The translations under genes were made by a program, and so were the position numbers. From Collinsella aerofaciens (GTDB lineage: Bacteria > Actinomycetota > Coriobacteriia > Coriobacteriales > Coriobacteriaceae), in the NCBI GenBank assembly GCA_048184855.1, contig DBEYYU010000069.1:4264-68263 (forward strand): DNA of 64,000 nt. Reading direction: 5' to 3'. This document shows, piece after piece, positions 1 through 54,271 of this stretch. Each line of letters begins with the position of its first letter. The stretch's first letter is position 1. The notes beneath the pieces are model-generated. The model was not told the origin of the DNA, made no database searches, and saw only the letters and a program-made list of their open reading frames with translations.

Positions 1-2529
1 ACCGCCGGCATCGTCTCCATCATGTCCAAGATGGGCATCTCCACGGTGCAGAGCTACCATTCGGCGCAGATCTTCGAGGCCGTGGGCTTCACTCCGGAGT
101 TCGTCAACGCGTACTTCGCCGGCACGGTGAGCCGTGTGGGCGGTATGGGTGTCGAGGACGTTGAGCGCGAGCAAAACGAGCGCTACGACGCCGCACTCGC
201 TATCCTTAAGAGCCCGGCTCCCGATCAGCTGCCCACGTTGGGCCTGACCAAGTGGCGCCCGCTCGGCGGCGAGGATCACCTCATCGATCCGCAGACCGTC
301 TACTTGCTGCAGACCGCCTGCCGCGAGGACAGCTACGACACCTTTAAGGAGTACAGCGCTCGCCTGCACCGCACCGGCCGTGCCGTGCGTCTGCGCGACT
401 TGCTGGACTTTGATGCCAGCGGCCGCACTCCGGTGGCACTCGACGAGGTGGAGCCCGCGCTCAACATCGTCCGCCGCTTTAACACCGGCGCCATGTCGTA
501 CGGTTCCATCAGCAAAGAAGCACACGAGTGCATGGCCATCGCCATGAACCGCCTGCACGGTCGTTCCAACTCGGGCGAGGGCGGCGAGGATTCGCGTCGC
601 GAGACCCCGCTGGCCAACGGTGACTCCAAGAACTCCGCCATCAAGCAGGTGGCAAGCGCGCGCTTTGGCGTGACGAGCCGCTACCTGTGCAGCGCCTTCG
701 AGATTCAGATCAAGATGGCCCAGGGCGCCAAGCCCGGCGAGGGCGGCCACCTGCCCGGCAAGAAGGTCTACCCCTGGATCGCCGAGGTCCGTCAGTCCAC
801 GCCCGGCATCGGCCTGATCTCGCCCCCGCCGCACCACGATATTTACTCTATCGAGGACCTGGCAGAGCTGATCTTTGACCTTAAGAACGCCAACCCCGGC
901 GCACGCGTGTCGGTCAAGCTGGTCAGCGAGGCCGGTGTCGGCACCATCGCCACCGGTGTGGCCAAGGGCGCTGCCGACAAGATCTTGATCAGCGGCCACA
1001 ACGGCGGCTCCGGTGCCGCGGCGCGCGATTCGATCTGGCACGCCGGTCTGCCGCTGGAGCTTGGCCTTGCCGAGGCCCAGCAGACGCTGCTGCAAAACGG
1101 CCTGCGCTCGCGCGTGGTGCTCGAGGCCGACGGCAAGCTCATGGACGGCACCGATGTTGCTGTCGCCTGCCTGTTGGGCGCCGAGGAGTTTGGCTTTGCG
1201 ACCATGCCGCTCATCTCCATGGGCTGCCTCATGCAGCGCGACTGCCAGCAGGATACCTGCCCGGCCGGCATCGCTACGCAAAACTGCCGCCTGCGTCGCG
1301 GCTTCCGCGGCAAGCCCGAGCACGTCGAACACTTTATGCTCTTTGTTGCCGAGCAGCTGCGCGAGGTCATGGCGAGCCTGGGCTTCCGCACCGTCGACGA
1401 GATGGTCGGCCATCCCGAGTGCTTGCGCCAGATTGAGGTCCCGGGCAACCGCAAGGCCAACCTGCTCGATCTGTCGCCCGTGCTGGCGAGCGCGACCTGC
1501 GAGTTCGGTGCCCACATCCCGGGTGCCGACGGTCGTCACTTCCTGCCGCAGATGGCTGCGGACAGTGAGCTCGACAAGACGCTCGACTCCACGTTGTTTG
1601 TGCCCTATACGGCCGATGCCCGTGCGCACCTGCGTCCGATTCGCTTCCGCGCCGATATCGCCAACGTCAACCGTTGCGTGGGCACCATCTTGGGCAACGC
1701 GGTGACCAAGGCGCATCCCGAGGGTCTGCCCGCCGGCTCCATCACCATCGATTGCGATGGTTCGGCCGGTCAGAGCTTTGGCGCCTTTCTGCCGCGCGGC
1801 ATTACGCTCAACGTGTGCGGCGACGCCAACGACTACTTTGGCAAGGGCCTTTCGGGCGGCGAGGTGTCGGTGCGCCCCAACCCGCATGCGACCTACAAGT
1901 TCGACGAGAACATCATCGTGGGCAACGTTGCGTTCTTTGGCGCTACGAGTGGCCGCGGCTTCATTAACGGCCTGGCCGGCCAGCGCTTTGGCGTACGCAA
2001 CTCCGGTGCCACGGTGGTGGTCGAGGGCTGCGGCAACCATGGCTGCGAGTACATGACGGGAGGTCTGGCGCTCATCCTGGGCGAGGTCGGGCAGAACTTC
2101 GCCGCCGGCATGACGGGCGGCGTGGCTTACGTCTTTGACCAGTACGGCACGCTCGATGCCCGTGTGAACCACGAGAGCGTTGAGCTTAAAGCCCCGACGG
2201 CCGGTGAGCTTGCGCAGATTCGTGCGCTCATCCAGGAGCACGTGGACGCGACGCAGAGCCCGCGCGGTATTAAGCTGCTCTACAGCTTTGAGACGATGAG
2301 CAAGCACTTTGTGAAGGTCATTCCAACCGAGTACGAGCGCGTGCTGGCGATTGTCGCCGCCGCCGAGGCCGTGGGCAAGACGCATGCGCAGGCCGAGGAG
2401 CTGGCGTTTGACATTGTGACCGGCCGCGCGAGTGCCGCGGATGTCGCTCGCTTTGATGTGGCGGGTGGTGTCGCTGGCGCTGCGCCCGCCACCGCCAGCT
2501 CTGTTGCTTCGACCAAGAAGGAGGCGTAA
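1..2529 (+). CDS. gltB: glutamate synthase large subunit, C-terminal part (FMN/synthase domain plus GXGXG domain); the 5' end lies outside the window
   Basis: The frame is open from nt 1 (TAGIVSIMSKMGISTVQSY...). It carries GltB hallmarks: QIKMAQGAKPGEGGHLPG, ISGHNGGSGAA, and the C-terminal GNVAFFGATSG / GCEYMTGG repeat domain. gltD follows after 5 nt. Confidence 0.92.
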   Translation, partial: TAGIVSIMSKMGISTVQSYHSAQIFEAVGFTPEFVNAYFAGTVSRVGGMGVEDVEREQNERYDAALAILKSPAPDQLPTLGLTKWRPLGGEDHLIDPQTVYLLQTACREDSYDTFKEYSARLHRTGRAVRLRDLLDFDASGRTPVALDEVEPALNIVRRFNTGAMSYGSISKEAHECMAIAMNRLHGRSNSGEGGEDSRRETPLANGDSKNSAIKQVASARFGVTSRYLCSAFEIQIKMAQGAKPGEGGHLPGKKVYPWIAEVRQSTPGIGLISPPPHHDIYSIEDLAELIFDLKNANPGARVSVKLVSEAGVGTIATGVAKGAADKILISGHNGGSGAAARDSIWHAGLPLELGLAEAQQTLLQNGLRSRVVLEADGKLMDGTDVAVACLLGAEEFGFATMPLISMGCLMQRDCQQDTCPAGIATQNCRLRRGFRGKPEHVEHFMLFVAEQLREVMASLGFRTVDEMVGHPECLRQIEVPGNRKANLLDLSPVLASATCEFGAHIPGADGRHFLPQMAADSELDKTLDSTLFVPYTADARAHLRPIRFRADIANVNRCVGTILGNAVTKAHPEGLPAGSITIDCDGSAGQSFGAFLPRGITLNVCGDANDYFGKGLSGGEVSVRPNPHATYKFDENIIVGNVAFFGATSGRGFINGLAGQRFGVRNSGATVVVEGCGNHGCEYMTGGLALILGEVGQNFAAGMTGGVAYVFDQYGTLDARVNHESVELKAPTAGELAQIRALIQEHVDATQSPRGIKLLYSFETMSKHFVKVIPTEYERVLAIVAAAEAVGKTHAQAEELAFDIVTGRASAADVARFDVAGGVAGAAPATASSVASTKKEA

Positions 2530-2534
2530 GTGCC

Positions 2535-4016
<1,482 letters not shown>

Positions 4017-4047
4017 GGCGGCTGTCCACAGCTGAATCGTCAAGGGC

Positions 4048-4129
4048 TGTCCCCGAATGCCGGCCCAAAAGGAACGTCCCCAAGTGCCGGCAGCTGGGGA
4101 CGTTCCTTATGTGCCGGCATTCGGGGACA
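4048..4129. repeat. nested palindrome downstream of gltD; a likely terminator and member of the GTCCCC-motif repeat family
   Basis: Perfect 17-nt outer arms: TGTCCCCGAATGCCGGC at 4048-4064 and its reverse complement at 4113-4129. They enclose a 12-bp inner hairpin, GGAACGTCCCCA 4071-4082 / TGGGGACGTTCC 4095-4106. Confidence 0.75.
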
Positions 4130-4431
4130 CTCCTTGCGAGTTCGCAGGCGACTTTGTCATTTGCCGACGTGCAAGTGTTCATTCGTCGACGTTTGCGACT
4201 GTGCTACTCTGCTCTTTCTGTGGTGGTAGCGGGCGTTTGCCTCAAATGAGTGAACTGACTGTCTATATCTACCTGCGGTTTCTTTGCGGTGCGCTCATTC
4301 GGTCAAGTGTCCCGTCAAGTGTTTGGTCAGCATCTGGTTTGCAGCCGGAGGCCTATTTTGCCCGCGCTGGTCGTGGCTGCCCACCCTCCTCGTAAGCTCA
4401 AATTGAGGTTCATCAGTTTGAGGAGGATGCC

Positions 4432-5139
4432 GTGACTGACCACGTTTTAGACCGAGCGCAGCTGGCTGAAGCCGTCGGCAACGATATTGCCGACATGGCC
4501 CATTTTTGGATGCTGCGGAAGTTCCAGTTTTTGGAGCCGGCACGCGAACAGTTCGAGATCATTGTCGACCCGTGGCTCAGCTATTGCACCGAGCCTTCGC
4601 AAAACGAAATCATGGCCTACAACATGGCATTTACCGATTGGCTGCTCTTCGAGCGCCCCTATCGCCATGGCAAGACGCTGCTCGAGCTGTATGTTGACGA
4701 ACCGCCGGCATCGCTTTCGCCTGCCTCGCTCAAGCGGCTCGAGCAGGTACGCGACACGCAGTATTTCTCGCGCTTTGGCATTTTGGACAAGGATCCTGCG
4801 AACGGCATGGTTGCGCTGAAGGATACGCGTGCCGACCGTCGCTTTGATGTCTACGACCCGCATATCGTGCAAAAGGAGCATTGGAGCGACGGCGCGATCG
4901 CGGTGCGCCTCGCCTGCATCGACGATGTCTGGCTGACGGCGGGACAGCTCTATCTGTATGACATCGCGCGCCTGAGTGACACGGCGGTCGATGGACCGGG
5001 TGCGGTGCATCCCGAGGATCTGCAGGACGGCTTTGACACCTCGTGCGTCAGCTTCTTTTTGCGCCTGGTCCGCGACATCATGGGCGCCCAGGGGCGGTAC
5101 GTGAAGTCGCTCAACATCTACGAGCAGGAGTGGGAGTAG
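4432..5139 (+). CDS. hypothetical protein (no family recognised)
   Basis: A 235-aa ORF with a GTG start, preceded by GAGGAGGA 4 nt upstream. Amino-acid composition looks coding. The competing antisense ORFs are Arg/Ala-rich artefacts. Confidence 0.6.
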   Translation: MTDHVLDRAQLAEAVGNDIADMAHFWMLRKFQFLEPAREQFEIIVDPWLSYCTEPSQNEIMAYNMAFTDWLLFERPYRHGKTLLELYVDEPPASLSPASLKRLEQVRDTQYFSRFGILDKDPANGMVALKDTRADRRFDVYDPHIVQKEHWSDGAIAVRLACIDDVWLTAGQLYLYDIARLSDTAVDGPGAVHPEDLQDGFDTSCVSFFLRLVRDIMGAQGRYVKSLNIYEQEWE

Positions 5140-5175
5140 GGGATGTGACTGGCGTCGCCCTGCTGCCCTGACTTT

Positions 5176-5312
5176 GTCTCAATCTGTAACGTTTGGCGGC
5201 TGTTTGGGCCCGTAACTGTTACAGATTGAGACGGAAGGTTGGCGGCTGCCGAAAGATCTTGTTCTGTAACAACTAGAGGCTCAAAGACTGTCTTCCTGTT
5301 ACAGATCAAGAC
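5176..5312. repeat. twin-hairpin repeat element, copy A (units 5176-5232 and 5256-5312)
   Basis: Each unit is a 15-nt arm, a 27-nt loop and a 15-nt inverted arm (GTCTCAATCTGTAAC...GTTACAGATTGAGAC; ATCTTGTTCTGTAAC...GTTACAGATCAAGAC). A 23-nt spacer separates the units. The same architecture occurs at 6418, 12055 and 15631. Confidence 0.9.
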
Positions 5313-5338
5313 ATTTGTCAGCGGAGGCAACGGTGACG

Positions 5339-6409
5339 ATGGTCCATTTGTCTGACGTGGTGGTGATGAAAGTGCCTAATACCGTTCTCAAACACAAACA
5401 TGCGACTCGCAACACGTTGGCGCGGAATAGGATGCTCGCGCGGCTCGCGGAGACGGCCAAGCAAGGTGCGCTGCTCGCAACGCATGACAATACCGAGCTC
5501 ATGTGGCTGCGACGCCATGTTGGAACCGACGATATCGCGGAGCCCGAGCCGTACCTGTTCTGTTTTCAGCATGATTGGGATGCATTGACGCCGGCGGAGC
5601 GAGCGCTGAGGACTATCAAAGGGCTTGCGAAATTTCATCCCGATTGGGCGTTTTGGGGATATGACGCCGCGCTGATATGGGGTCTGGAGGTGCCGAATGA
5701 TCTGCTCGGGCCGCGTTTCCTTGTTAAGACTTGCTGTTCGGTGACGTTGAGCGGCGGGTGCAGGTTGTTGCGTCCGCAGATTGCGGGCGCGCTCGAGCGC
5801 GTCGACGGCGTGCGGGTGACGTCGTTTTGGCGCACGGCGGAGGATTGCTTGCTGCGTGCGCCGTTCTCCTACGGGTTGGCGATTGCCGATTCTGCACTGC
5901 GGGTGAAAGACGTATCACGTGGGGATTTGTGCGAGCGCCTCCGCGCCGATTGCGAGGGCAGGCGAGGGTATCGCAGGGCACAGGCGATTGCGTCGTATGC
6001 GGACGGGCTGTCCGAAAACGGCGGCGAGTCTCGGTTCCGAGCGTTCTTTATTGCGTACGGCTTTCCGGTTCCGGAGCTGCAGGTGGAGTTTCGCGACCCG
6101 CTCGATCCGAGCCAGGTGTTTCGCGTCGACTTTTTTTGGCGGCTCGAGGAGGGAACGTGCGTGATTGGCGAGCTGGACGGTAAGGGGAAGTACACCCTGC
6201 AGAGCGGCGAGGCCCGGGAGCCGGTCGACCCATTCGTGGCAGAGCGTCAGCGGGAATCTCATCTGACAATGCTCGGGCACAAGGTGCTTCGGTTTACGTT
6301 TGATGAGCTCAAGAATCCGGGGAAGCTGGTTGAGAAGATGAGGCTGGCGGGTATTCCGCGACGGCCCGATTTGGCTGAGGAGTGGAGACGTCGGTGGTAT
6401 GGGCGCTGA
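5339..6409 (+). CDS. DUF559 / Vsr-like (PD-(D/E)XK fold) endonuclease-domain protein with an N-terminal wHTH-like region
   Basis: The C-terminus (GGESRFRAFFIAYGFPVPELQVEF..FRVDFFW..IGELDGKGKY..LGHKVLRFTFDEL) matches the pattern of actinobacterial DUF559 proteins as I recall it. The track ORF starts at a TTG at 5315, immediately after the hairpin arm. The ATG at 5339, with GGAGG upstream, is more plausible. Confidence 0.7.
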   Translation: MVHLSDVVVMKVPNTVLKHKHATRNTLARNRMLARLAETAKQGALLATHDNTELMWLRRHVGTDDIAEPEPYLFCFQHDWDALTPAERALRTIKGLAKFHPDWAFWGYDAALIWGLEVPNDLLGPRFLVKTCCSVTLSGGCRLLRPQIAGALERVDGVRVTSFWRTAEDCLLRAPFSYGLAIADSALRVKDVSRGDLCERLRADCEGRRGYRRAQAIASYADGLSENGGESRFRAFFIAYGFPVPELQVEFRDPLDPSQVFRVDFFWRLEEGTCVIGELDGKGKYTLQSGEAREPVDPFVAERQRESHLTMLGHKVLRFTFDELKNPGKLVEKMRLAGIPRRPDLAEEWRRRWYGR

Positions 6410-6417
6410 GAGGTTTT

Positions 6418-6555
6418 GTCTTGATCTGTAACGTTTAGAAGTTGTTTGAGTTCGTAATTGTTACAGATCGAGACAAACCGGTGAAACGTCGACCGAATGT
6501 CTCGATCTGTAACATCAAGGGGCCCAACAACCCTGTATCTGTTACAGATCGAGAT
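6418..6555. repeat. twin-hairpin repeat element, copy B (units 6418-6474 and 6499-6555)
   Basis: GTCTTGATCTGTAAC-27 nt-GTTACAGATCGAGAC, a 24-nt spacer, then GTCTCGATCTGTAAC-27 nt-GTTACAGATCGAGAT. It starts 9 nt after the stop of the DUF559 gene. Confidence 0.9.
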
Positions 6556-6704
6556 ATTTCCCTGGTGTCGCTGGGGTGGGACTGCAGCATATTCCGTCTC
6601 CCACATCCCCTCTTCCCTCCGTTAACCGATGCGTCTGCAGCAATCCAGCGGGACTAGGTGATAATGGACAAATGTTCAAGTTAATCGTGAGGGAGGAGCT
6701 CGAT

Positions 6705-8075
6705 ATGGCGTCTGCCGATCGTTCCACGTTGTTTATCAATGCGACCATTCTGGATGGCTCGGAGCATATGGAGCCGCAACCCGATATGGCCGTGACTGTT
6801 GAGCGCGGCGTCATCACCTGGATGGGGCCGAGTGCTGTGGCGCAGGCGCCCGCGGGTGCCGAGGTTATCGACCTGGGCGGTGCGTATCTCATGCCCGGTC
6901 TCATCAATATGCACGTGCACCTGTGCGGCTCGGGCAAGCCTGTCTCGGCCGGCGATGCGGGCGCGCTGATGAAGAAGCTCGATAATCCCGTGGGGCGCGC
7001 CATCGTGCGCCATATTCTTAAGGGCAGCGCCCAACAACAACTGGCAAGTGGCGTGACCACGGTGCGCGGCGCGGGCGATCCGCTGTTTGCCGATCTGGCC
7101 GTGCGCGATGCTATCGATGCCGGCAAGTATCAAGGTCCTCGCCTGGTGGCGCCGGGAACGGGCGTCACGGTGCCGGGCGGCCATGGTGCGGGCTTGTTCG
7201 CCCAGGTGGCCAACAGTCCCGCCGAGGCAGCCGAACAGGTGCGCGACCTGTATGCGCGTGGTGCCGACGTCATTAAGCTGTTCGTGACGGGCGGCGTGTT
7301 CGACGCTACCGAGGTGGGCGAGCCGGGCGTGCTGCGCATGCCGGTCGAGGTTGCCGCGGCGGCGTGCAAGGCTGCGCACGAGGTGAGTCTGCCGGTTATG
7401 GCCCATGTCGAGAGTACCGAGGGCGTGAAGGCCGCGCTTGAGGCCGGCGTTGACACGATTGAGCACGGCGCTCCGTTGACGCCCGAGATTCTGGAGCTGT
7501 ACCGTGGCGCCGCGGGCACGCAACTCGAGGGGCGTGCGCCCAGTGTTACCTGCACTATCAGCCCGGCGCTGCCGTTTGTATTGCTCGACCCGAAAAAGAC
7601 CCATTCGACCGATACGCAAAAGAAGAACGGCGATATCGTGTGCTCGGGCATTATCGAGAGCGCCCGTGCCGCACTGGAAGCTGGCGTTAAGGTGGGCCTG
7701 GGTACGGACTCGAGCTGCCCGTTCGTGACGCAGTACGACATGTGGCGTGAGGTGGCCTATTTTGCCAAGTATGTCGGCGTGAGCAACGCCTTCGCACTGC
7801 ATACGGCTACGCAAGTCAACGCCGAGCTGCTGGGGCTGGACGGCGAGACTGGCACGATCGAGTGCGGCAAGGCCGCCGATATCTTGGTGACGCGCGAGAA
7901 CCCGCTCGATGACCTGTGCGCTCTGCGTGAGCCGATGCACGTGATGTGTCGCGGCGATCTGGTGTGCAAACTCAAGGTGAAGCGCATCCCCGAGGTGGAT
8001 GCCGAGCTCGACGCGATTATGGCCATGCCAGCCGAAGCGCTGGCTGAGGAGCTGGCCCGCGACGGCGTAGCATAG
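6705..8075 (+). CDS. amidohydrolase-family metal-dependent hydrolase
   Basis: It has the HxH metal motif (LINMHVHLCG) and later H/D ligand regions (MAHVES, IEHG, GTDS). GGGAGGAG lies 8 nt upstream of the ATG at 6705. Alternative starts are 6672 and 6576. Confidence 0.85.
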   Translation: MASADRSTLFINATILDGSEHMEPQPDMAVTVERGVITWMGPSAVAQAPAGAEVIDLGGAYLMPGLINMHVHLCGSGKPVSAGDAGALMKKLDNPVGRAIVRHILKGSAQQQLASGVTTVRGAGDPLFADLAVRDAIDAGKYQGPRLVAPGTGVTVPGGHGAGLFAQVANSPAEAAEQVRDLYARGADVIKLFVTGGVFDATEVGEPGVLRMPVEVAAAACKAAHEVSLPVMAHVESTEGVKAALEAGVDTIEHGAPLTPEILELYRGAAGTQLEGRAPSVTCTISPALPFVLLDPKKTHSTDTQKKNGDIVCSGIIESARAALEAGVKVGLGTDSSCPFVTQYDMWREVAYFAKYVGVSNAFALHTATQVNAELLGLDGETGTIECGKAADILVTRENPLDDLCALREPMHVMCRGDLVCKLKVKRIPEVDAELDAIMAMPAEALAEELARDGVA

Positions 8076-8108
8076 GTGTGACAAAGGGACAGCTCCGTTG
8101 TCGCATAC

Positions 8109-8145
8109 AAAAAGCCGAGGTCTCAGCGCGAGGCCTCGGCTTTTA
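8109..8145. terminator. bidirectional intrinsic terminator between convergent genes
   Basis: AAAAGCCGAGG...CCTCGGCTTTT: a GC-rich stem with an A-run on one side and a T-run on the other. It sits between the stops at 8075 (+) and 8166 (-). Confidence 0.65.
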
Positions 8146-8165
8146 TTTGTCCTATGGTATGGCGG

Positions 8166-8639
8166 CTAGGAGCGCGTCTCCATCTTGGCGTGGCACTTGG
8201 GGCAGGTGACGCGAATCTTGCCCTTGCCCTTGGGGACGGAGAGCATCTGGCCGCAGTTGGGGCACTTGAGATAGGCCGTGGTCTTGCGGCCCTTCCACAT
8301 CTTCTTGGCCGTGCGCTTGGCACGCTCAAAGTCTTCCTTACTGGTGCCGGCCGCGCGTGAGGTGCTGGCCGCTGCGGTTCCGCCGCCCAAGCTGGCGACG
8401 AATTTGCCCAGGCAGGGGACGTTTGCAGTCGCGGCGACAAAGGCCTCGTTCTCCTTGTGACGTGCGTCGATATTTTTGGACAGGCCGCGCAGCACGCCAA
8501 TCACGATTACGGCGATGGCAATCCAGCTGAGCCACTGGATGCGGGCTATCGATCCGATCATCGCGATGACGATGCCGGCAAAACCCATCACGATGGTGAG
8601 TTCATCGGCACCATTGCGACCCTTCATAAAGTCATTCAT
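8166..8639 (-). CDS. membrane protein with a C-terminal zinc ribbon
   Basis: It has two hydrophobic helices (LTIVMGFAGIVIAMIGSIA, LSWIAIAVIVIGVL). The C-terminus has a CPNCG...CPKCH pair. The likely start is MNDFMKG at 8639. Confidence 0.65.
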   Translation of the reverse strand: MNDFMKGRNGADELTIVMGFAGIVIAMIGSIARIQWLSWIAIAVIVIGVLRGLSKNIDARHKENEAFVAATANVPCLGKFVASLGGGTAAASTSRAAGTSKEDFERAKRTAKKMWKGRKTTAYLKCPNCGQMLSVPKGKGKIRVTCPKCHAKMETRS

Positions 8640-8694
8640 GCAAATTGCCTTTCGTTCGATATGCTGCACGCCTTTATACCCGATTTAGAGCAAG

Positions 8695-8741
8695 GGGGAC
8701 AGGTTAATCTGCACCAATGTGGTGCAAACATACCTGTCCCC
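8695..8741. repeat. inverted repeat with a 27-nt loop (family 2, copy 1), followed by a partial extra arm at 8755-8775
   Basis: GGGGACAGGT-27 nt-ACCTGTCCCC. The loop TAATCTGCACCAATGTGGTGCAAACAT contains its own TGCACCA/TGGTGCA hairpin. A near-identical element lies at 19543-19607. Confidence 0.8.
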
Positions 8742-8785
8742 GGAATACCAAGACGGTGCAAACGTACCTGTCCCCAATGCCCCAA

Positions 8786-9058
8786 TTACTTGGAGAGTTT
8801 GTCGACGACGCGTTCGATTTCGGCGAGTTTGGCGGCTTTGAGGTCTTCGTCGCCCGATTCGATTGCCGAAGTCACGCAGCCCTCGATATGCGCCTTGAGC
8901 ACGTCGGCGTTAATGCGCGCGAGGAGCGCCTGTGTGGCCATGAGCTGCGTGGAGATATCGACGCAGTAGCGGTCCTCCTCGACCATCCGCAGGATGCCGT
9001 CGATCTGACCGCGTGCCGTCTTGAGCATGCGGGTCACCGATTTATGGTCTGCCATCAT
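8786..9058 (-). CDS. csoR: CsoR-family copper-sensing transcriptional repressor
   Basis: MMADHKSVTRMLKTARGQIDGILRMVEEDRYCVDISTQLMATQALL...HIEGC shows the typical CsoR/RcnR (DUF156) C-H-C pattern. It lies in an operon with copZ and copA. GAGGA lies upstream of the ATG at 9058. Confidence 0.9.
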   Translation of the reverse strand: MMADHKSVTRMLKTARGQIDGILRMVEEDRYCVDISTQLMATQALLARINADVLKAHIEGCVTSAIESGDEDLKAAKLAEIERVVDKLSK

Positions 9059-9100
9059 GTCGGGTCCTCGTTTCTGGTCGATCTTCCGGATGTCCCCGTC

Positions 9101-9167
9101 AGTTGCGGTGAAATACGGACCGTTTAAAGGCCTAGGGCGGCACAACAGTCCGTATTTCACCGCAACT
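9101..9167. repeat. perfect 20-nt inverted repeat with a 27-nt loop (family 3, copy 1), between copZ and csoR
   Basis: AGTTGCGGTGAAATACGGAC at 9101-9120 and its exact reverse complement at 9148-9167. A related copy lies at 50140-50206. Confidence 0.85.
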
Positions 9168-9193
9168 TCTGAGGATTCAGTAGGCAGCGACTG

Positions 9194-9415
9194 CTATGCG
9201 GCGGTCACAGACAGGGCGTGGAATTTCTCGCCCGCGGCCTCGACAGCGGCGGCGAGTTGCTCGGCGGTTACGGTGTCGGCGCACTCAACCTGGACGGTCT
9301 GGGTCTCGTGATCGGCGTCGGCGTCGGTCACGCCGGCAACGTTGAGCAGTGCCGTCTCGACAGTAGCGTCGCAGTGGCCGCACATGAGGCCGGAAGTCTT
9401 GATTGTGTATCGCAT
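9194..9415 (-). CDS. copZ: heavy-metal-associated (HMA) domain copper chaperone
   Basis: A 73-aa protein, MRYTIKTSGLMCGHCDATVE..., with the CxxC metal-binding motif. GGGAGGAA lies upstream. It is adjacent to copA. Confidence 0.85.
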   Translation of the reverse strand: MRYTIKTSGLMCGHCDATVETALLNVAGVTDADADHETQTVQVECADTVTAEQLAAAVEAAGEKFHALSVTAA

Positions 9416-9562
9416 GGGTATTCCTCCCTGTTGTGTCGGCTTTCCCAGGCACCCGACCTTGACCTTCAAGCCGTCGCTCGCGTACCAAAGTACGCGTCGC
9501 TCCTCTTTCAGGTCAATCTCGGGCACCTGGAAAACCCGTTCTAAATGGACTTAATGGTGAGC

Positions 9563-11902
9563 TTATTTTGCCACTTTTGGCTTAAAGGATTTTAAGCGCA
9601 GCGCATTGCTTACGACGCAGACACTCGACAGGCTCATGGCCGCGGCGCCAAACATCGGCGAGAGCTGCCATCCGGTGAGCGGGAAGAACACGCCCGCCGC
9701 CAGCGGAATGCCGATGCCGTTGTAGAACAGTGCCCAGAACAGGTCCTGCTTGATGTTGCGGATCGTGGCGCGCGAAAGCTCGATGGCGCGGGCGACGTCC
9801 ATGAGGTCGCTGCGCATGAGAACCACGTCGGCGCCCTCCTTGGCGATGTCGGCGCCGGTGCCGATAGCAAGGCCCACGTCGGCGCGCGCCAGGGCGGGGG
9901 AGTCGTTGATGCCGTCGCCTACCATGGCGACCTTGCCGCCCACATCCTGCAGCTCGCGGACGTGGCGCTCCTTGTCGGCAGGGAGGACGTCGGCGATGAC
10001 CTGTTCGCTGCTCAGCCCCACGCGGCGGGCGATGGCCTCGGCCGTCACGCGGTTGTCGCCGGTGAGCATGCGCACGTCGACGCCAAGCGAGCGCAGTGCG
10101 GCGATGGCCCCGGCGCTCGTCTCCTTGACCTCGTCCGCCACGGCGATGGTACCGACAAGCTCGCTGTTCTTGGCAAAGAACAGCGGCGTCTTGCCCTCGG
10201 CCGCGAACTGTTCGGCAAGGCCGGCGGGAACCTTCACGCCCAGCTCGTCCATCAGACGCACGTTGCCGGCGGCGATGACATTCTGCCCCTCGCGTGCCGT
10301 AACGCCTCGCCCGGGCACGGCGGTAAAGTCCTCGACCATGCGTGCGACGATTCCGCGCGCCTCGCACTCGGCCATAATCGCCTCGGCCAGCGGGTGCTCG
10401 CTTGAGCGCTCCAGCGCAGCGGCCAGCTTGAGCAACGCCTTTTCGCTCATGGCGGGCGAGCCGTCAGCGCGCGTGGCTACCGTGATATCGGTCACAGCCG
10501 GCTTGCCGCGGGTGACGGTGCCCGTCTTGTCGAGCACCACGGTGCCCACGCTGCGTAGGTTCTCCAGCGCCTCGGCGCTCTTAAACAGAATGCCCATTTC
10601 GGCGCCCTTGCCGGTGCCGACCATAATGGCGACGGGCGTGGCCAGGCCCAGCGCGCACGGGCAGCTGATCACCAGCACGGCGACGGCGGAGGTGAGCGCT
10701 TCGTTCACGCTTCCGGTCAGTGCCGTCCACACCACGAAGGTCACGGCCGAGATCATGAACACCACGGGCACGAACACGCCGGCGACCTTGTCGGCCATGC
10801 GGGCGATGGGCGCCTCGGTGGCGTTGGCGTCCTCGACGAGCTGGATAATCTTGGCGAGCGACGTGTCGGCGCCCACGCGTGTGGCACGGAAGGTAAACGA
10901 GCCGGTGCGGTTGACAGTGGCGGCGTTGACGGTGTCGCCGGCGGTCTTCTCCACGGGGATGGACTCGCCGGTCAGTGCACTTTCGTCCACGGCCGAAGCG
11001 CCCTCGAGTACCACGCCGTCGACAGGGATGGACTCGCCGGGGCGCACACGCAGCACCTGGCCGGGCAGAATGGCATCGACGTCGACGGTGGCCTCGGTGC
11101 CGTCCTCTGCCACGACGGTCGCGGTCTTGGGCGCTAGGTCGATGAGCGCCTCGATGGCGCCGCCGGTCTTGGACTTGCTGCGCGTCTCGAGGTATTTGCC
11201 TACGGTGACGAGCGACAGGATGGTGCCGGCGCTCTCAAAATACAGATTGTCCATGCCCGTCATCATGGCCTCGTGGACCTGACCCGCGGCTAGCTGGTCG
11301 GCCATGATAAACATGGCGTAGAGCGACCAGGCGATGGAGGCGGTGGCGCCCACGGCAATAAGGGCGTCCATGGTAGGCGCGCCGTGCGCGAGTGATTTAA
11401 ACCCGTTGATAAAGTACGCGTCGTTGACGTAGACGATGGGAATGAGCAGGACGAGCTCGGTGAGCGCGAGCGTCATGCTGTGGGTGTGGTCGGTGAAGAT
11501 GCCGGGCAGCGGCCAGCCGAGCATGTGCCCCATGCCTATGTAGAACAGTGGGATGAGGAATACGATCGAGACGATGAGGCGGGTGCGCATGGCAGAGGCG
11601 GCGGCCTCCAACTTTTTGGTCGGCGACTCCATATGGGCGGCGCCGGACCTGGCTTGCGCACTTCCGCTTTGGACAGCGTCGGTGCCCGTGCTGATGGGCG
11701 AGGCCGAGTAGCCCGCGCGGTCGACAGCGGTGCAGATGTCGTCGGGGGAGACCTGCGCAGGGTCGTAGTCCACCAGCATAGAGCCGGCGAGCAGATTGAC
11801 CGCGACGCTTTGGACGCCGTCGAGCTTGCTCACGGCACGGTCCACGTGCGCCTGGCAGGCGGCGCATGTCATGCCGCCCACGTCGAACTTATCTTGAGCC
11901 AT
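9563..11902 (-). CDS. copA: copper-translocating P1B-type ATPase
   Basis: It has an N-terminal HMA domain ([11 protein letters not shown]), the CPC transmembrane motif ([11 protein letters not shown]), the DKTGT phosphorylation site, and the HP and [10 protein letters not shown] motifs. Confidence 0.96.
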
Positions 11903-11949
11903 GGCTTCTCCTTTCTGTAGTTCGGTGTTGGAATTGTTAACCTGCCGAT

Positions 11950-11977
11950 ACTATACACCCATACCCCCTGGGGGTGT
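11950..11977 (-). promoter_or_regulatory. candidate copA promoter -10 element with an overlapping CsoR operator
   Basis: On the minus strand the sequence reads ACACCCCCAGGGGGTAT (11961-11977), followed by TATAGT (11950-11955), about 45 nt upstream of the copA ATG. It is a GC-rich pseudo-palindrome of the type bound by CsoR. Confidence 0.55.
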
Positions 11978-12006
11978 CCAGTACAGAAAGAAATGTATGA
12001 CATTTC

Positions 12007-12191
12007 GTTACAGATGAGGGTGGTTGGTTGGCCGATGGACCGTCCCAACCAATCATCTCAATCTGTAACATCTGAGGACCGTTTTGCCTGCTAGATGTTA
12101 CAGATTGAGATGTTGTCTCGCGGGGTTGGGGTTTGTCTCGTTCTGTAACATCTAGACCTGTATCTGCCGAGCTGGTGTTACAGATCGAGAC
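12007..12191. repeat. twin-hairpin repeat element, copy C (units 12055-12111 and 12135-12191), plus a solo arm GTTACAGATGAG at 12007-12018
   Basis: ATCTCAATCTGTAAC-27 nt-GTTACAGATTGAGAT, a 23-nt spacer, then GTCTCGTTCTGTAAC-27 nt-GTTACAGATCGAGAC. The extra upstream arm can pair with the first left arm through GGTTGGTTGG/CCAACCAATC. Confidence 0.9.
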
Positions 12192-12233
12192 ATTTGCCGG
12201 GAAGGGGTCCCGTCACGGCAAGACGCCCGCCGC

Positions 12234-14317
12234 CTAGATACAGAACCCGGGGATCACACAGGTTAGCTTGTTTGGCTTTTCCGCAGGCGTTGCGTACGTA
12301 AAGACGTCGCCGTCGTGCCCCACGCGGTTCATATAGAGCGTGCCTTCGCTCTCCGATGTGTCGGGGCTCACCGTGCGCTCCCACCAACAGGTGTCCTTGC
12401 CCTTCCACTGGCGGACCATCGTCTCGTTCGTGGAATACGGGCTCACCTTGAGCTCGCGGAAGAGCTGATACTCCTTGCCCTCGCCGTTGTAGATGTCTGC
12501 CAGGTAGTGATAGTCCTCGGCAAACGAATCGGGCGGTTGCGTACCGCACAGCTCGACCATGGCGGGCAGCCAAAGGGTTGCGGGCAACTCGCTCAGGCAC
12601 GATGCGCTGTTGGCGGCGCCCACATTGTTCGAGACCTTCTTGACCCCTTTAATGAGTGCGCGCAACTCGTTGGGCAGCAGCTTAAGGCCGTCGCCGTTGA
12701 GCCATTCCCGCAGCTCGCAATCTGCCCAGCCGGCGCTCGGCGGTTCAGCCGCAGCGTTGCGCTCGGCAATACCCGCGTCGAACATAAACGTCAGTCCGGC
12801 CTTGCCCGTCCCGTCCAGAAGCTCATCGTGGCGAATGCCCACAAGCTGCGCGCCAACCTGCAGCCCGTTGGTGAGCGTGACGCGCTTGGTACACGGATAG
12901 GGGATATGCCCATCGGCATCGAGCAGATGATAGCGCCTGGCAATCTCGCGTGCCTCGCTACGGGTCTCGGTGGCCTTAATCTTGAGCGAAATCTCCTGCA
13001 GCTGATCCCAAGTGTAGTCGTCAAGTGAGCTGCGGATGCCGTCCAGGTAGTCGGGGATGCCAAAGCCATGGGTTGCCGCCCCGATAACGCCGAGCCCCGC
13101 AACGGCTGCGACAACGCCACCGATAATAAAGCGGCGGCGGGTCATGGCATCGTGCCGGGCCTGCTCCAGGATCTCTCGCGCGCGCTCGCCGGCGACGTCG
13201 ACCTTAAGGTGTGTACCGGAGTCGATGTCGATTGCGGCGTCACTGCCCGCGCCTTCGCGGCCCTCGGATTCGGCATCGGTGAGGTATGCCGAGAGCACCT
13301 CGAGCATCTGCTGCTCGGTGGGACGATCGCACTGCTCGACTGAGAGACCCTTCATGATGATTTTGACGAGCGCTTCATCGCCCTCGCAGCGCGGCTCGAG
13401 CGGTGCCGGCTTGGTCTTGGTCTTTACGAGATAGAACGAGCCGGTTGCAGCGGCGTCCGTCGACTCAAAGTCAAACGGTTTGCGACCGCTGTAGAGCTGG
13501 TACAGAATGCTCGAAAGCGCATAGACGTCGATTGCCGGCGAACGGCGAAGGGCCGCGATGCCTTCGATATCCTGCGTGAGCATCTCGGGCGCGGCGTATG
13601 CGGGCGTGGCAAAGCGCCAGATGTCGGCGCGCCGGGTGATCGTGTCGTCGCCGAGAGCCATGGTCGCGGAGCCCATGTCGATGAGGCAGGGGTCAAAGGA
13701 GCAATCGGCAATCTGCTGCTCGAGCGTTCGGCTGGTGGTGCGGAACATGATATTGGCAGGCGAAAGGTCGCGATGGATGACCGGATTCACGAGGCCTTGG
13801 GTCATCAAGAGCGCACGAAGCACGGCGTTTCCGACGGCGGCGACCATCTGGGTGGTCAGCCCGCCCGAGGCGTCGTGAGGAAGCAGGGGCAGCGCCTGCT
13901 TGAGTGAGGTCCCTCGACCCACTCCATGAGGATGAGCGGGTCGTCCTCGCACGATCCGTAGCCATAGACGCGCGGAAATCCGCGCAGGTACGAGACGGTA
14001 TACAGATGACGGTACTCCTCGAACAGCGCAGCGGTGTTGGCCAGGTGCGCTGCCGATTGCTCGGCGGAGCGGTCGGGGGCTTGGCCAGAGAGAAAGGCGT
14101 TGTCCTTGAGTAGCTTGACGGCAAAGACCTCGCCGCTTGTGTTGGTCGCGCGAAGCACGTGCCCGATGATGCCGTTGTTGCGGTGGGCCGTCTGGAGAAT
14201 AAGCGTCATAAACCGACGCTTGGCGTCGTCCTCGGCACTGGGGTCGACCGCCACGGCGGTGTCGAACGTATCGAGACGGATGAGTTTGTCGCCATAGGCG
14301 CTATCGGTAGTATCCAT
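12234..14317 (-). pseudogene. receptor-type Ser/Thr protein kinase interrupted by a 1-nt frameshift (N-lobe ORF 13856-14404, C-lobe/TM/ectodomain ORF 12234-13952)
   Basis: The N-lobe ORF has FAVKLL and the hinge LILMEWVEG. The overlapping ORF continues with HRDLSPANIMF, IDMGSA and APE. These are followed by a TM helix (FIIGGVVAAVAGLGVIGAA) and a 275-aa ectodomain. The frames join if one G is added to the GGG run at 13911-13913. Confidence 0.75.
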
Positions 14318-14488
14318 GGCGTTCCTTTGTCTGGCATGGGTTGCCGCGCGTACACGTGAGCAGTGCGGATATCGGTAAAGTACCATGATAGCCGCACTGC
14401 TCACGTGTACCGCTGAGTATTGTCGTTTACGACGCAGAAGGTAGAAGACGAAAGACGGACGGCGACCGTCTTCCGATCGCTGTCCGTG

Positions 14489-15451
14489 CTAGTCCACAAT
14501 GACAAGGAATGTCGTGTAGAGACCCAGATGGAGCCTGTCGCTGTTGGCGATTTCCACGGGGGGATAGACTTTGCCGGGTTCGCGTTGGTCGCGGGGCGGC
14601 TCAATCACAATATCGCCGTCGCCCGCGCCCGATTCGAGCACTGTGCCGTTGGTCGATCCAAGGCCCTGGGCGTACCAGTGCTCACCCTCGAGCCAAATAC
14701 GAAGATGCTCGCGCGAGGCGTCGGCGCCTACATCGGTGATGCTGGGCGAGGTTTTGGGCAAAGAACCAATCACGGTGCCGCGCGGATCGCGTGTGAGGGG
14801 ATGGATTTGCATGTCGGCGCAGTTGTCGGCATGGGTTCTGAGCAGACCGAGGTTGGGAGCGACGGTGTGCGGCTGCTCCAGGCTGCTCATAAAGCCACGT
14901 CCGACGGTAGTTTCGGTGGTGCCAAAGTGCCCGCCCGTCTTGCTGTCGCAAAAGCGCTCGACGGTGGCCACGCCCTGAACGGGATCGGCGAGCGCCCCCG
15001 TTGCCACAAAGAGCATAAGGTAAAGCGTGCTTTTCTCGCGCACGGCATTGCCGTCAAAGTTGTCGATGCGATTGAGGGCATTTGCATATAGGCGGCTGTC
15101 CAGCTTGTAGCTGGCGAGAGCCGACATCATTTCGTTGGCGGCCGGACCGCGATAGTGCTCGGCGATTGCCTGATAGGCGGACTCGCCGCCGCCGAGCTTG
15201 CTGCAGATTGCCGCGGAAAGGTTGAGCGTGGTGACGGTAAAGTCGCTGTAGATGGCGGGCGCGCACTGGTCAGGCTTGCGATGGACGATGTAACGGGTGA
15301 GATACGAGCGGTTGGAAGAGCATTTCTCGAGCAGGGTACTGCCGAGATAGGAGTTTCCATTGATGAGCATTCGGGCGATCTCGAGATGTTTAAGACCGCC
15401 GAACGAGCGAATATCGTTATAGAGGACCGAGCAAGGCGTCTCTGCTGCCAC
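14489..15451 (-). CDS. FHA-domain protein with an unrecognised ~220-aa N-terminal domain
   Basis: The C-terminus (GTVIGS...SREHLRIWLEGEHWYAQGLGSTNGTVL...) is a canonical FHA pattern. It lies upstream of the kinase on the same strand. AAGGAGG lies 5 nt before the GTG at 15451. The track ORF begins at a TTG at 15481. Confidence 0.8.
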   Translation of the reverse strand: MAAETPCSVLYNDIRSFGGLKHLEIARMLINGNSYLGSTLLEKCSSNRSYLTRYIVHRKPDQCAPAIYSDFTVTTLNLSAAICSKLGGGESAYQAIAEHYRGPAANEMMSALASYKLDSRLYANALNRIDNFDGNAVREKSTLYLMLFVATGALADPVQGVATVERFCDSKTGGHFGTTETTVGRGFMSSLEQPHTVAPNLGLLRTHADNCADMQIHPLTRDPRGTVIGSLPKTSPSITDVGADASREHLRIWLEGEHWYAQGLGSTNGTVLESGAGDGDIVIEPPRDQREPGKVYPPVEIANSDRLHLGLYTTFLVIVD

Positions 15452-15630
15452 GGATACCTCCTTTGATTGCTTCCTAGCCAATATGGCGATAGGAATTAAT
15501 GGCCCCCGGTGGGCGACGTATTAAATGGTTGCGCAATATATAGCGTAACCAAAGCAACATTATAGGCCACATGTTCGAAATTGCAGGAAGACTGAGAGAT
15601 TTGGTTTGGACTGGACGGAAATCCCCCTCT

Positions 15631-15768
15631 GTCTTGATCTATAACAATTAGGGCCGATTTTACTCGTTAACTGTTACAGATTGAGACGTTTGTGAGCCGT
15701 GTCGACCGTTTGTCTCGATCTGTAACACGTAGAGGAAGATTCGCCCTGTAGATGTTACAGATTGAGAC
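15631..15768. repeat. twin-hairpin repeat element, copy D (units 15631-15687 and 15712-15768)
   Basis: GTCTTGATCTATAAC-27 nt-GTTACAGATTGAGAC, a 24-nt spacer, then GTCTCGATCTGTAAC-27 nt-GTTACAGATTGAGAC. Confidence 0.9.
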
Positions 15769-16039
15769 AATCAGCCGGGCCCACCTCGTCCGCCTCGTCA
15801 TCTGTGGTTTACGTGGGGGCATGCGAAGCACGGGTATACTAACCGGCGGCGAATCTGCTCCATCGCTTAGAGCTGCTGCGTCTGGACGGCGCGTGATAGG
15901 GCTGCCAAAGCGATCGCCAGCGTGCTGAGCAACGTCCTCTCTGTGCGCACCTGTTTTTGTATGTATTAGCGCACTACCAAGCACGCCCGCGCGGCCGCAT
16001 GCCGTGCCCATTGCGCGTGCAGATAAGGAACAACAACAT

Positions 16040-18151
<2,112 letters not shown>

Positions 18152-18185: not shown

Positions 18186-18221
18186 GGGCCCGAGCAAACA
18201 ACGCTCGGGCCCTTTTGTTTG
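18186..18221 (+). terminator. intrinsic terminator of the helicase gene
   Basis: GGGCCCGAGC-aaacaac-GCTCGGGCCC followed by TTTTGTTTG, 35 nt after the stop codon. Confidence 0.8.
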
Positions 18222-18768
18222 CCGTGTCCATCGCTAATTCAAACGTGATTATCTCGGGAATGCATCTGGGGGATGCTGAGGACCTATTTTCTGCCATGCA
18301 GCAATGGGCCCCATGGGGTGCGCCGTGCATTTTTTGGAGTATTCTGCAGTTCGAGTTGTCTGCATATGATCCGACGTCGCCAACGGTGGCCTTCGGATAT
18401 CCCTGGCGAGCGTTCTGAGTCAGATTTCGCCGTTTTCCGGAGCAGGGGCGCGTCATTCTCGCCATGTCGGGACTTAGAATGATACGGCGCCCTACAGTTT
18501 TGCCCACCCGCGGCGGTGCTGGCGTGGTTACGTTGCAGAATACTCCGTTTTTTGCACGGGCTAGGATGGGGTACCTCAGGAGAACACAGCGGTATCCCGT
18601 AAAGATATACAATTTGTACCGTAATTTATACAAAACGAAGAGGCAGACAGCGTAGGGTGGGTGCATTGGGGTGCTTGGTGCATTAAAACGGGGACCCCAC
18701 GTGCCGTATACTCTGGCTGGATGTGAAAGCGGCTTGACGCGTTGCCAGGCGTAGGGGAGGGTGCCTCG

Positions 18769-19530
18769 ATGAGCGTATTCGAAATTGTGTTTAGTCCGAC
18801 GGGTGGAACGCAGAAGGTGTCAGGCCTTGTGGCCGGAGCACTGGGCAAGAATACCGTTACCGTCGATCTGACCGATAGCGGGTTGGATTTCAACGCTGTC
18901 TCGATGACTGAGGACGACGTGGCCGTAATCTCTGTGCCGGCGTATGCCGGTAGAATCCCGGCTGTGGTGGCTGACCGGTTGGGCATGGTGCGCGGCAACG
19001 GGGCTCGGGCTGTTTTGGTTTGTGTATACGGAAACCGCGCGTTTGAGGACACGCTCGTAGAGCTGGAGGACGTTGCGAAGCATGCGGGATTCCGGGTGAT
19101 CGCGGCAGTTGCAGCCATTGCAGAACATTCCATTGCGCGACAGTTTGCTGCCGGTCGTCCGGATGCGCAGGATGCGGCGCAGCTTGCTGAGTTTGCTCAG
19201 CAAATTCAGCAAAAGCTGTTGGCTGAGGATACGTCCGAGCCCTCTATCCCCGGCAATCGTCCTTATAAACAAGCTGGAGGTCACCGCATGGCACCCGAGG
19301 CAACAGAGGATTGCGTTTCCTGCGGTGCATGCGCCGCGGCGTGCCCCGTTTGTGCTATCGACAAGGGTGACCCCAAACGAGCAGCTGGCGAGGCGTGCAT
19401 CTCCTGCATGCGCTGCATTGCCGTATGTCCGCGAGGTGCTCGTAAGGTTGATCCCAACAAGCTATCCGCTGTTTCCCAGATGCTGAGCAAGGTTTGCGTC
19501 GTGCGGAAGGAATGCGAGCTCTTTATCTAG
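18769..19530 (+). CDS. flavodoxin-like domain fused to a 2x[4Fe-4S] ferredoxin domain
   Basis: The N-terminus (VFSPTGGTQKV...ISVPAYAGRIP) is flavodoxin-like. The C-terminus has CVSCGACAAACP and CISCMRCIAVCP. GGGGAGGG lies upstream of the ATG at 18769. Confidence 0.75.
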   Translation: MSVFEIVFSPTGGTQKVSGLVAGALGKNTVTVDLTDSGLDFNAVSMTEDDVAVISVPAYAGRIPAVVADRLGMVRGNGARAVLVCVYGNRAFEDTLVELEDVAKHAGFRVIAAVAAIAEHSIARQFAAGRPDAQDAAQLAEFAQQIQQKLLAEDTSEPSIPGNRPYKQAGGHRMAPEATEDCVSCGACAAACPVCAIDKGDPKRAAGEACISCMRCIAVCPRGARKVDPNKLSAVSQMLSKVCVVRKECELFI

Positions 19531-19542
19531 CGCATACGAAAT

Positions 19543-19607
19543 TGGTGCAATGGGACCAGGTTAATCTGCACCAACCTGGTGCAAACAAACCTGACCCCAT
19601 TGCACCA
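19543..19607. repeat. inverted repeat with a 27-nt loop (family 2, copy 2)
   Basis: TGGTGCAATGGGACCAGGT-27 nt-ACCTGACCCCATTGCACCA. The loop TAATCTGCACCAACCTGGTGCAAACAA is nearly identical to the loop at 8705-8731. It lies 13 nt downstream of the stop at 19530. Confidence 0.8.
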
Positions 19608-19852
19608 GAGCAAGGAGTGTCCCTGGGTGCCGGCAGAAATGGAGTGTCCCCAAGTGCCGCCTAAATACCGTTCATCGGTCATAATGGTTGCTCCGGCTTT
19701 GGACTTGTCTACAATAGCTTCCGTCAAAAGAAATGCGGAAGGTTACCGAGTCCCTCGGACGTGGGCCTAACCAAAGTCTTTGAACGGGTGTGTCTCTATG
19801 GATGCATTCGCTTGATTTTGGTTGGGCTATATTTATGAAGGGACATGCCACC

Positions 19853-54109: not shown

Positions 54110-54122
54110 GGACGGCGTTGGC

Positions 54123-54251: not shown

Positions 54252-54271
54252 GGGTGAGATTGGAGGAAGTG

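Follow-up and report, generated by a model that had tools for sequence, protein, structure and literature searches.

The 64,000-nt stretch of Collinsella aerofaciens DNA analysed here (contig DBEYYU010000069.1; the whole stretch is called the window) carries, between the copper ATPase gene copA and a DEAD-box helicase gene, a 3436-nt minus-strand unit holding an FHA-domain gene and a Ser/Thr kinase gene. The unit is flanked by two sites of twin hairpins, C and D. An earlier reading made from the letters alone (the sequence-only reading) had described this 3.4-kb unit correctly, with its FHA-domain and Pkinase open reading frames (ORFs), and had taken it for an inserted or exchanged cassette whose ends are marked by the repeats. 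On comparison with other genomes, C and D are probably two local copies of a Collinsella-specific intergenic palindromic repeat family, and not the ends of a mobile cassette.

The arm search was carried out with the 15-nt pattern TGTTACAGATYGAGA, allowing up to two mismatches, over the whole 64-kb window. It returned 16 matches, where shuffled sequences give 0.11, and all 16 were confined to four sites, designated A, B, C and D. The conserved arms of sites C and D are 17-20 bp long (TGTTACAGATYGAGACA). In each site the arms follow one another in the order −, +, −, + with a start-to-start spacing of exactly 40 nt, and each site of ~148 nt forms two long hairpins (z = −6.6 to −9.8 against dinucleotide shuffles), with a folding energy of −52 to −71 kcal/mol per twin hairpin. 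When the four sites were aligned, the arms were invariant and the loops and linkers variable. The two hairpins apiece that the sequence-only reading had seen at C and D are therefore present, at or within 3 nt of where it had placed them. No relevant Rfam match was obtained, either at the gathering threshold over the whole window or at E ≤ 1 over 11900-16050.

All four arrays hold two units and have no strand assigned. Array C (12052-12193; arms at 12056-12070, 12096-12110, 12136-12150 and 12176-12190) lies between the stop codon of the kinase gene and the copA promoter. Array D (15629-15770; arms at 15632-15646, 15672-15686, 15713-15727 and 15753-15767) separates the FHA operon from the divergently oriented helicase gene; since the helicase gene is on the plus strand, D sits between divergent genes and not downstream of a gene. 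Arrays A (5174-5314; arm matches spanning 5177-5311) and B (6416-6557; arm matches spanning 6419-6554) lie on either side of a DUF559-like gene (5339-6409, plus strand), for which Pfam gave only E = 0.028 and the codon-usage score was ~0. The end of array A precedes the longest ORF of this gene (TTG at 5315) by 1 nt and its probable ATG (5339) by ~25 nt, and B starts 7 nt after its stop codon.

A solo degenerate arm, CGTTACAGATGAGGG, was located at 12007-12021 on the plus strand; a palindromic linker of 34 nt (12022-12055) connects it with the first arm of C. Its start lies 30 nt from the CsoR-type operator palindrome of copA, ATACCCCCTGGGGGTGT (11961-11977), and it is kept beside that operator in two related contigs (L080 and L084), so that the solo arm had been rightly recognised. 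It had also been called a scar of repeated insertion or recombination; it is probably a truncated unit, which fits arrays prone to recombination.

The FHA-domain gene (14489-15451, within an ORF of 14489-15481; minus strand) encodes a 320-aa protein with the FHA domain at its C-terminus (Pfam, E = 6e-6) and an N-terminal 200 aa without assignment. Its upstream region (15482-15628, minus strand) is AT-rich, as had been read from the letters: G+C is 46% (over 15482-15630), against 62% window-wide. This region is presumed to hold the promoter, and no consensus promoter was found in it by a simple scan. The kinase gene (12234-14317, minus strand; Pkinase and DUF6273) encodes a protein that combines a kinase domain with a transmembrane helix and an ectodomain of the DUF6273 type. 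Compared with the intact allele of 694 aa, as found in L001 and other strains, a net 1-nt deletion near 13910 shifts the frame and splits the gene into a 182-aa N-lobe ORF (13856-14404) and a 572-aa ORF (12234-13952), so that the kinase of the window is either a pseudogene or an assembly error. Truncated kinases are common in other assemblies, both N-terminally truncated forms (P0070, 293 members) and C-terminally truncated forms (P0071, 1422 members; for example L010), which suggests recurrent inactivation of the kinase. The kinase seems dispensable rather than mobile. Matches to PADLOC and NCBIfam were of the generic kinase-domain kind and far below the family cut-offs, and membership in a defence system was rejected. 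In the spacer between the two genes lies a perfect hairpin of ~19 bp (14346-14414, minus strand), preceded by a terminator-like stem (14458-14470). This hairpin is locus-specific and outside the arm family, its sequence being found in relatives at the orthologous position only, and together with the stem it may separate or attenuate the two genes.

The repeat family was surveyed outside the window with the strict hairpin pattern ATCTGTAAC-N27-GTTACAGAT, scanned over a species-representative genome collection, for which about 9 chance matches were estimated. At least 120 stretches carried the pattern, nearly all of those listed being labelled Collinsella, and none was found in 50,697 phage records. 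In a plasmid collection the array query matched one record only, NZ_OY725717.1, which is a mislabelled piece of C. aerofaciens chromosome: although labelled 'plasmid 6', this record (our loci L150-L159) carries recA, rho, dnaE, secA, secY and ribosomal-protein operons. A direct scan of 516 kb of it revealed five arrays (13 hairpins) and one degenerate unit. All of these fell within the 20 kb orthologous to positions 1-16,000 of the window, and the other 476 kb held none, IS-rich (insertion sequence) and defence regions included. BLAST counts of 14 and 23 places in this record were set aside as inflated by multiple registers on few arrays. Of the 119 loci with arrays that came from species representatives, about 30 are this same region, and we therefore put the number of arrays per genome at roughly 20-25 and regard this region as a hot spot; the figure is rough, since the contig order of the collection is uncertain. 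GC skew was uniform over the 476 kb, and the hot spot is accordingly not placed at the origin or the terminus in the scanned stretch. No description of this repeat family was found in the literature searched.

The geometry of the family was determined in a census of 141 sequences. Within a hairpin the arms were 40 nt apart in 473 of 475 cases, and across the linker the spacing was 40 or 41 nt in 292 of 303 (40 nt in 174 and 41 nt in 118). The unit of ~57-63 bp, 5′-WWTGTCTCRATCTGTAACA-(25 nt)-TGTTACAGATYGAGACAWW-3′, consists of inverted arms around a 25-nt centre that is variable in sequence and invariant in length, and that is polar, with an A-run, and follows a degenerate consensus. Linkers of 25/26 nt take the form CAWW-(~17 variable nt)-WWTG. 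Arrays contained 1, 2, 3, 4, 5, 6 or 8 units, two being commonest, at a period of 80/81 bp, and 202 of 205 arrays were intergenic. When orthologues were merged, 46 distinct flank-pair sites with both flanks visible remained, comprising 22 convergent, 13 tandem and 9 divergent sites and 2 probable gene miscalls. At other loci the arrays often lay 9-33 nt from terminator-like hairpins CCACCACAAAGGGGACAGGCACCTTTGTGGTGG.

In order to place the FHA-kinase pair, the synteny of the copA-to-helicase interval was compared among relatives. A CopA protein identical to that of the window is encoded by many contigs from gut metagenomes and Collinsella; in ten of these (L001-L010) the order was helicase, FHA, intact 694-aa kinase, copA. 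The pair stood directly upstream of copA in about 23 related contigs, an annotated copy of the FHA-kinase-copA locus was present in C. aerofaciens TSDC17.2-1.1, and the same arrangement was seen in six species-representative Collinsella genomes. Kinase homologues formed a main cluster at 88-96% identity and distant groups at 70-75%. In one distant lineage (L141-143; kinase 71% identical) the pair again preceded copA, with five hairpins between the pair and copA; its FHA gene had a larger kinase/FHA/PP2C cluster on the upstream side, where neither an array nor the helicase was present, so that the pair is unbracketed there, the array being on the copA side only. In L144/L145 (kinase 70% identical) and L146/L147 the pair stood directly before copA and its operator, with zero arms in 10-16 kb. 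The only exception was L148/L149 (kinase 75% identical, no arms), where small ORFs and not copA followed the kinase. The pair was thus found beside copA in every lineage with a visible junction other than that one, and its conservation in relatives free of the repeats is the very pattern that the sequence-only reading had set out as incompatible with a cassette.

The composition of the pair was ordinary as well. Its G+C is 0.61 against 0.62 for the window, and its G+C, GC3 (G+C at third codon positions) and codon score fell between the 23rd and the 54th percentile of the 39 window genes, within or near the interquartile range. Nor do the repeats bracket accessory-type genes in particular, as had been supposed: genes between neighbouring arrays elsewhere included an Nramp transporter, a PTS (phosphotransferase system) permease, LacI, a histidine phosphatase and an AAA ATPase, a mix of core genes (Nramp, PTS, LacI) and accessory ones. 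Tested as a genomic island, the FHA-kinase unit showed a stable position, typical composition and no mobility gene. To judge from these sequence comparisons, the pair is an old resident, an ancestral operon beside copA that has become degraded in this genome.

Unit number differed between near-identical strains at all four sites (A, 2-4 units; B, 1-2; C, 1, 2 or 6; D, 1-2), and it varied at nearly every distinct site of the family; in relatives array A held 2-5 units, and the orthologous site C of other strains held 1, 2, 3, 5 or 6. At site C different strains retained different subsets of a common set of units, and the single D unit in L002 resembled, by eye, a chimera of units 1 and 2 of D in the window. 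These observations point to in-register unequal recombination or slippage, which would also keep the period fixed. Loops at different sites were ~50% identical, against ~30% for shuffled loops, and only ~1% of between-site pairs reached 80%, indicating that recent copying is rare. Orthologous units persisted across species.

Constraint on the unit was assessed by locating orthologous units through their non-arm positions only. Over 984 comparisons, divergence was 3.7% in the arm cores, 9.0% in the loops and 12.6% in linkers and flanks, the arms thus diverging ~3.4 times more slowly than the linkers; a separate calculation gave similar values. The arm sequence is then either constrained or homogenised by conversion. 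No covariation was seen at stem positions 4/60, 8/56 and 9/55, whose two sides varied independently; at 9/55 the pairs were GC 124, AT 92, AC 89 and GT 83. In the loops there were weak hints of covariation only (position 26 with 36/37). Because sequence and geometry appear constrained and complementarity does not, recognition of the DNA by a protein is suggested.

Arrays were also found at places where gene content changes. L058 lacks the DUF559-like gene found between A and B and has instead a single hybrid hairpin (2955-3015) with the left flank and loop of A and the right flank of B, the junction falling inside an arm. As the gene is present in the distant L141 lineage, the state of L058 is a deletion. 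In L074 (380-3727) and L080 (2-3340), a 3.6-kb gene for a PgrA/Sec10-like LPXTG protein of the surface-exclusion type (1112-1115 aa) lies within array C, in the position of a linker between the kinase gene and copA, equipped with an upstream region and a terminator of its own. Between lineages, synteny on the upstream side of the FHA gene switches at D, and in L082 (~4790) the end of an IS256 element interrupts an arm. Other gene-content differences nearby, such as a PTS cluster beyond the helicase gene, occur without an array, and the arrays are therefore fragile spots rather than the sole route of change. That the repeats mark points of insertion or exchange accordingly does not hold for the FHA-kinase pair, and does hold for the arrays as places of gain, loss and exchange of DNA. 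As a partner enzyme of the repeats the DUF559-like gene was rejected, its Pfam match being sub-threshold (E = 0.028); a paralogue with 35% identity is situated ~0.9 kb away from another array, which is no evidence of association since the loci were chosen for containing arrays.

Insertion sequences and prophages were seen near some arrays. In the orthologous region of L150, strain-specific insertions were noted at 3032-3490 and 26431-27765 (IS200/IS605 and IS256), the IS200 copy sitting after TTGAT, next to a degenerate half unit. On viral contigs (L011-L020; for example L013, 1944-2165) an array and a prophage junction are ~75 nt apart, and the array adjoins a 375-aa gene presumed from its position to encode the prophage integrase. 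The array was rejected as the attachment site, the host/prophage junction being ~75 nt outside it in seven viral contigs, and because of this position the viral matches reflect host flank DNA.

The proposal that the FHA-kinase unit is accessory and was inserted or exchanged between twin-hairpin recombination sites, in an integron-like or composite-element-like way, can draw on the exact bracketing of the 3436-nt unit by arrays in all strains of the aerofaciens group, on frequent inactivation of the kinase as expected of a dispensable gene, on the variable presence of other array-flanked genes and on the break of synteny at D. It is nevertheless most improbable in our judgement. The position beside copA is shared by repeat-free lineages, the pair is unbracketed in L141-143, no empty site was seen and the composition is unremarkable. 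The unit contains no integrase or transposase, and in the surrounding 40 kb PGAP lists only those of strain-specific IS200 and IS256 elements; the attC core GTTRRRY is not matched by the arms, and the similarity between the C and D loops does not exceed that seen between unrelated sites.

A role at the RNA level, with the hairpins acting as terminators, insulators, 3′-end stabilisers or small-RNA processing sites, was considered unlikely. Such a role would agree with the very stable stems (folding energy −52 to −71 kcal/mol for each twin; z as low as −9.8), with the excess of convergent sites (22/44), with the frequent position of arrays just after terminator-like hairpins and with the scarcity of canonical terminators in the region; yet nine distinct sites, D among them, lie between divergent genes where there is no 3′ end, and the stems are not followed by a U-tract. 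The independence of the variable stem positions, with an A·C mismatch at 9/55 in 23% of units, the conservation of the arms as sequence on both strands and the absence of an Rfam match speak against it too, as does the finding that loops and linkers match no phage record. We attach a similarly low probability to an active non-autonomous transposon of the MITE (short for miniature inverted-repeat transposable element) or REPIN (paired REP hairpin) type that is copied in trans and builds arrays by targeted insertion next to existing copies. The terminal inverted repeats of 17-20 bp with 5′-TG...CA-3′ ends, the many copies of a genus-specific family and the IS200/IS605, IS256, IS21, IS3, IS30 and IS110 transposases in the genome would suit such an element, and the local clustering (13 hairpins in 20 kb and none in a further 476 kb) would fit local hopping. 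Against this, no target-site duplication is detectable, and neither an IS with matching ends nor an arm-flanked RAYT (REP-associated tyrosine transposase) was found in 1.2 Mb of loci and 516 kb of genome. Recent copying is rare, as judged from the ~50% identity of between-site loops (≥80% in ~1% of pairs); orthologous units persist across species, and the GTAG tag of RAYT-type REPs occurs in only 3.6% of arms.

Among known systems, the closest likeness is to the bacterial interspersed mosaic elements (BIMEs) and the sequences known as repetitive extragenic palindromes (REPs). BIMEs consist of regularly spaced repeats in alternating orientation that are extragenic, dynamic and species-specific (PMC2817692), and REP/BIME arrays are known from Enterobacteria, Pseudomonas and Stenotrophomonas (PMC2817692, PMC3733652). 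The Collinsella arrays likewise have extragenic palindromic units in alternating orientation, fixed linkers, strain-variable unit numbers and a species- or genus-specific distribution; an IS has inserted into a unit, as the IS256 end in L082 illustrates, and BIMEs have been proposed to bind proteins at the DNA level. Unlike in BIMEs, the Collinsella arm itself is not palindromic, the palindrome being 57-63 bp with a fixed-length 25-nt centre, and the family shows strong regional clustering in a host that is an actinobacterium of the Coriobacteriia. REPs exist in >100 copies per genome of 20-40 bp palindromes, whereas 13 hairpins were counted in 516 kb here and the estimated copy number, ~20-25 arrays per genome, is far lower. 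REP units carry a GTAG (or CGTC) tetranucleotide tag at one end, and a survey of 2013 leaves Actinobacteria unmentioned and lists GTAG repeats only in other phyla (PMC3733652). The Collinsella arms lack these tags: over 782 arm ends GTAG was present in 3.6% and CGTC in 0.1%, CTAG being commonest at 21%. The RAYT gene, IS200/IS605-like with a Y1 catalytic type, is flanked by two cognate inverted units (PMC2817692); a search of ~1.2 Mb of array-centred loci and of 516 kb of C. aerofaciens yielded no arm-flanked RAYT. An IS200/IS605 tnpA gene 1.6 kb from an array in TSDC17.2-1.1 was rejected as a RAYT or REPtron, being a strain-specific insertion after TTGAT with unrelated end hairpins.

A REPIN pairs two REPs in inverted orientation about a spacer of lower conservation (PMC3116915, PMC3337134). 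The Collinsella unit shares with them conserved inverted arms around a variable spacer, a long hairpin, the occurrence as singlets, doublets and clusters, and long vertical persistence. REPINs need a single-copy RAYT and are near-identical to one another, whereas the Collinsella centres are ~50% diverged between sites and no RAYT was seen. A comparison with MITEs gave a similarly mixed picture. Such elements (for example Correia of Neisseria, and RUP and BOX of Streptococcus) are short and non-coding, have terminal inverted repeats, lie in gene spacers and affect neighbouring genes depending on their insertion; they show target-site duplications, a cognate IS and variable distances from copy to copy. 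The Collinsella unit resembles them in its terminal inverted repeats of 17-20 bp, which are >95% conserved at most positions and end in TG...CA. It differs in that neighbouring units are locked to an 80/81-bp register. No target-site duplication was apparent, the flanking WW dinucleotides being nearly independent (positions 1/63: TT 113, AA 89, AT 82, TA 79). In the array-centred loci no arm pair encloses a transposase, and the local IS256 and IS200 ends are unrelated to the arms. Irregular or solo arm matches were rejected as ends of a cognate IS; they were chance matches, truncated arrays or one degenerate unit.

With the attC sites of integrons the arrays share imperfect palindromes, conserved outer boxes, a variable centre and a position beside strain-variable genes. 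No integrase was found in the PGAP annotation of the 40-kb orthologous region or in the Pfam annotation of ten strains, and the arrays lack attI and Pc as well, in contrast to integrons. The arms, CTGTAAC/GTTACAG, have two mismatches to GTTRRRY, and no RYYYAAC/GTTRRRY match was obtained. One to six hairpins follow in series with no ORF between them, and the flanked units have promoters of their own and include core genes, the FHA-kinase unit having its own AT-rich upstream region and a fixed position. A CRISPR array was rejected because successive repeats alternate in orientation, the loops have a degenerate consensus in common and no cas genes were present; a six-unit array gave no match at E ≤ 1 against the 50,697 phage records. 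The inner arm ends, TGTTACAG/CTGTAACA, resemble what we take to be parS half-sites. They face apart with 25 nt between them, away from a skew switch, and parS was rejected. The family is a further member of the REP/BIME/MITE kind from a new lineage.

Taking these lines together, we consider it probable that C and D are local copies of a palindromic family that is recognised at the DNA level and remodelled through recombination in register. On this reading the FHA-kinase operon would have stood beside copA before the repeats spread, as comparison of the lineages suggests, and the repeats would later have colonised the spacers on both sides of it. They would also have settled in three other spacers of the same 20 kb, the main hot spot of the family. 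Arrays would gain, lose and exchange units through in-register unequal recombination or slippage among their arms and units, as the junction sequences suggest, and the same short homologies would occasionally delete or admit whole genes. Because the arm sequence and spacing are strongly conserved and the pairing at variable stem positions is not, the arms may be read on the DNA as sequence-specific sites by a putative protein, either a host architectural protein or a transposase-like partner as in BIME/REP elements. We do not think that the hairpins are RNA terminators or the recombination sites of a cassette system, and we infer a BIME/REP/MITE-like element; the preference for a DNA-level mechanism rests on patterns of conservation.

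Several points weigh against this account. No binding protein, transposase or RAYT-like partner was identified in the DNA examined, and gene conversion among copies could by itself make the arms uniform even if they had no function. Convergent genes flank half of the distinct sites and many arrays follow a terminator-like hairpin, so that at some sites the hairpins may have a role at RNA 3′ ends. The deletion in L058, the gene within array C of L074/L080 and the synteny break at D all touch arrays, and a more active role in exchange than recombination at short homologies is possible. The genome-wide census moreover covers 516 kb of one genome by direct scanning, and the collection figures are lower bounds. 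A bolder possibility, which we hold to be quite unlikely, is that the arrays serve as platforms on which a dedicated Collinsella protein for DNA binding or recombination assembles, and through which they actively mediate gain, loss and replacement of genes at the ~20-25 sites; this would amount to a hairpin-array system of gene exchange or chromosome architecture distinct from integrons and from RAYT/REP systems. The 40-nt geometry, arm conservation without covariation, the 20-kb hot spot and the three gene differences at array junctions are compatible with it.

Some further features of the region were noted. The copA gene (P-type Cu ATPase; 9563-11902, minus strand), with its CsoR-type operator, is the conserved neighbour of the FHA-kinase pair, and the DEAD-box helicase gene (16004-18151, plus strand) adjoins the pair only in the lineage of the window. 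On the 3′ side of the helicase gene, positions 18200-19600 contain only ORFs with negative or near-zero codon-usage scores, at ~56% G+C, and some strains annotate a 196-aa ORF in the matching region. A second intergenic palindromic family, around GGGGACAG/CTGTCCCC and related to the CCACCACAAAGGGGACAGGCACCTTTGTGGTGG hairpins, is present at 4041-4136, 8685-8775, 19542-19659 and 31069-31117. Between a dnaE-like and an SNF2-like gene, a 131-nt MITE-like element with perfect terminal inverted repeats of 39 bp was found at 54122-54252; this spacer is only 28 nt long in C. aerofaciens TSDC17.2-1.1, where copies of the element lie elsewhere (L154, L155).

C. aerofaciens is among the commonest actinobacteria of the human gut and is divided into hundreds of genomic species. 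For its annotation, the FHA-kinase pair should not carry the label of a mobile cassette, and the kinase in this genome is to be treated as a pseudogene. The repeat family stands apart by its non-palindromic arms, its rigid 40-nt geometry, the lack of a GTAG tag and its strong regional clustering. The arrays probably give rise to contig breaks and to the deletion or insertion of genes locally, and their strain-variable unit number could act as a marker for strain typing.

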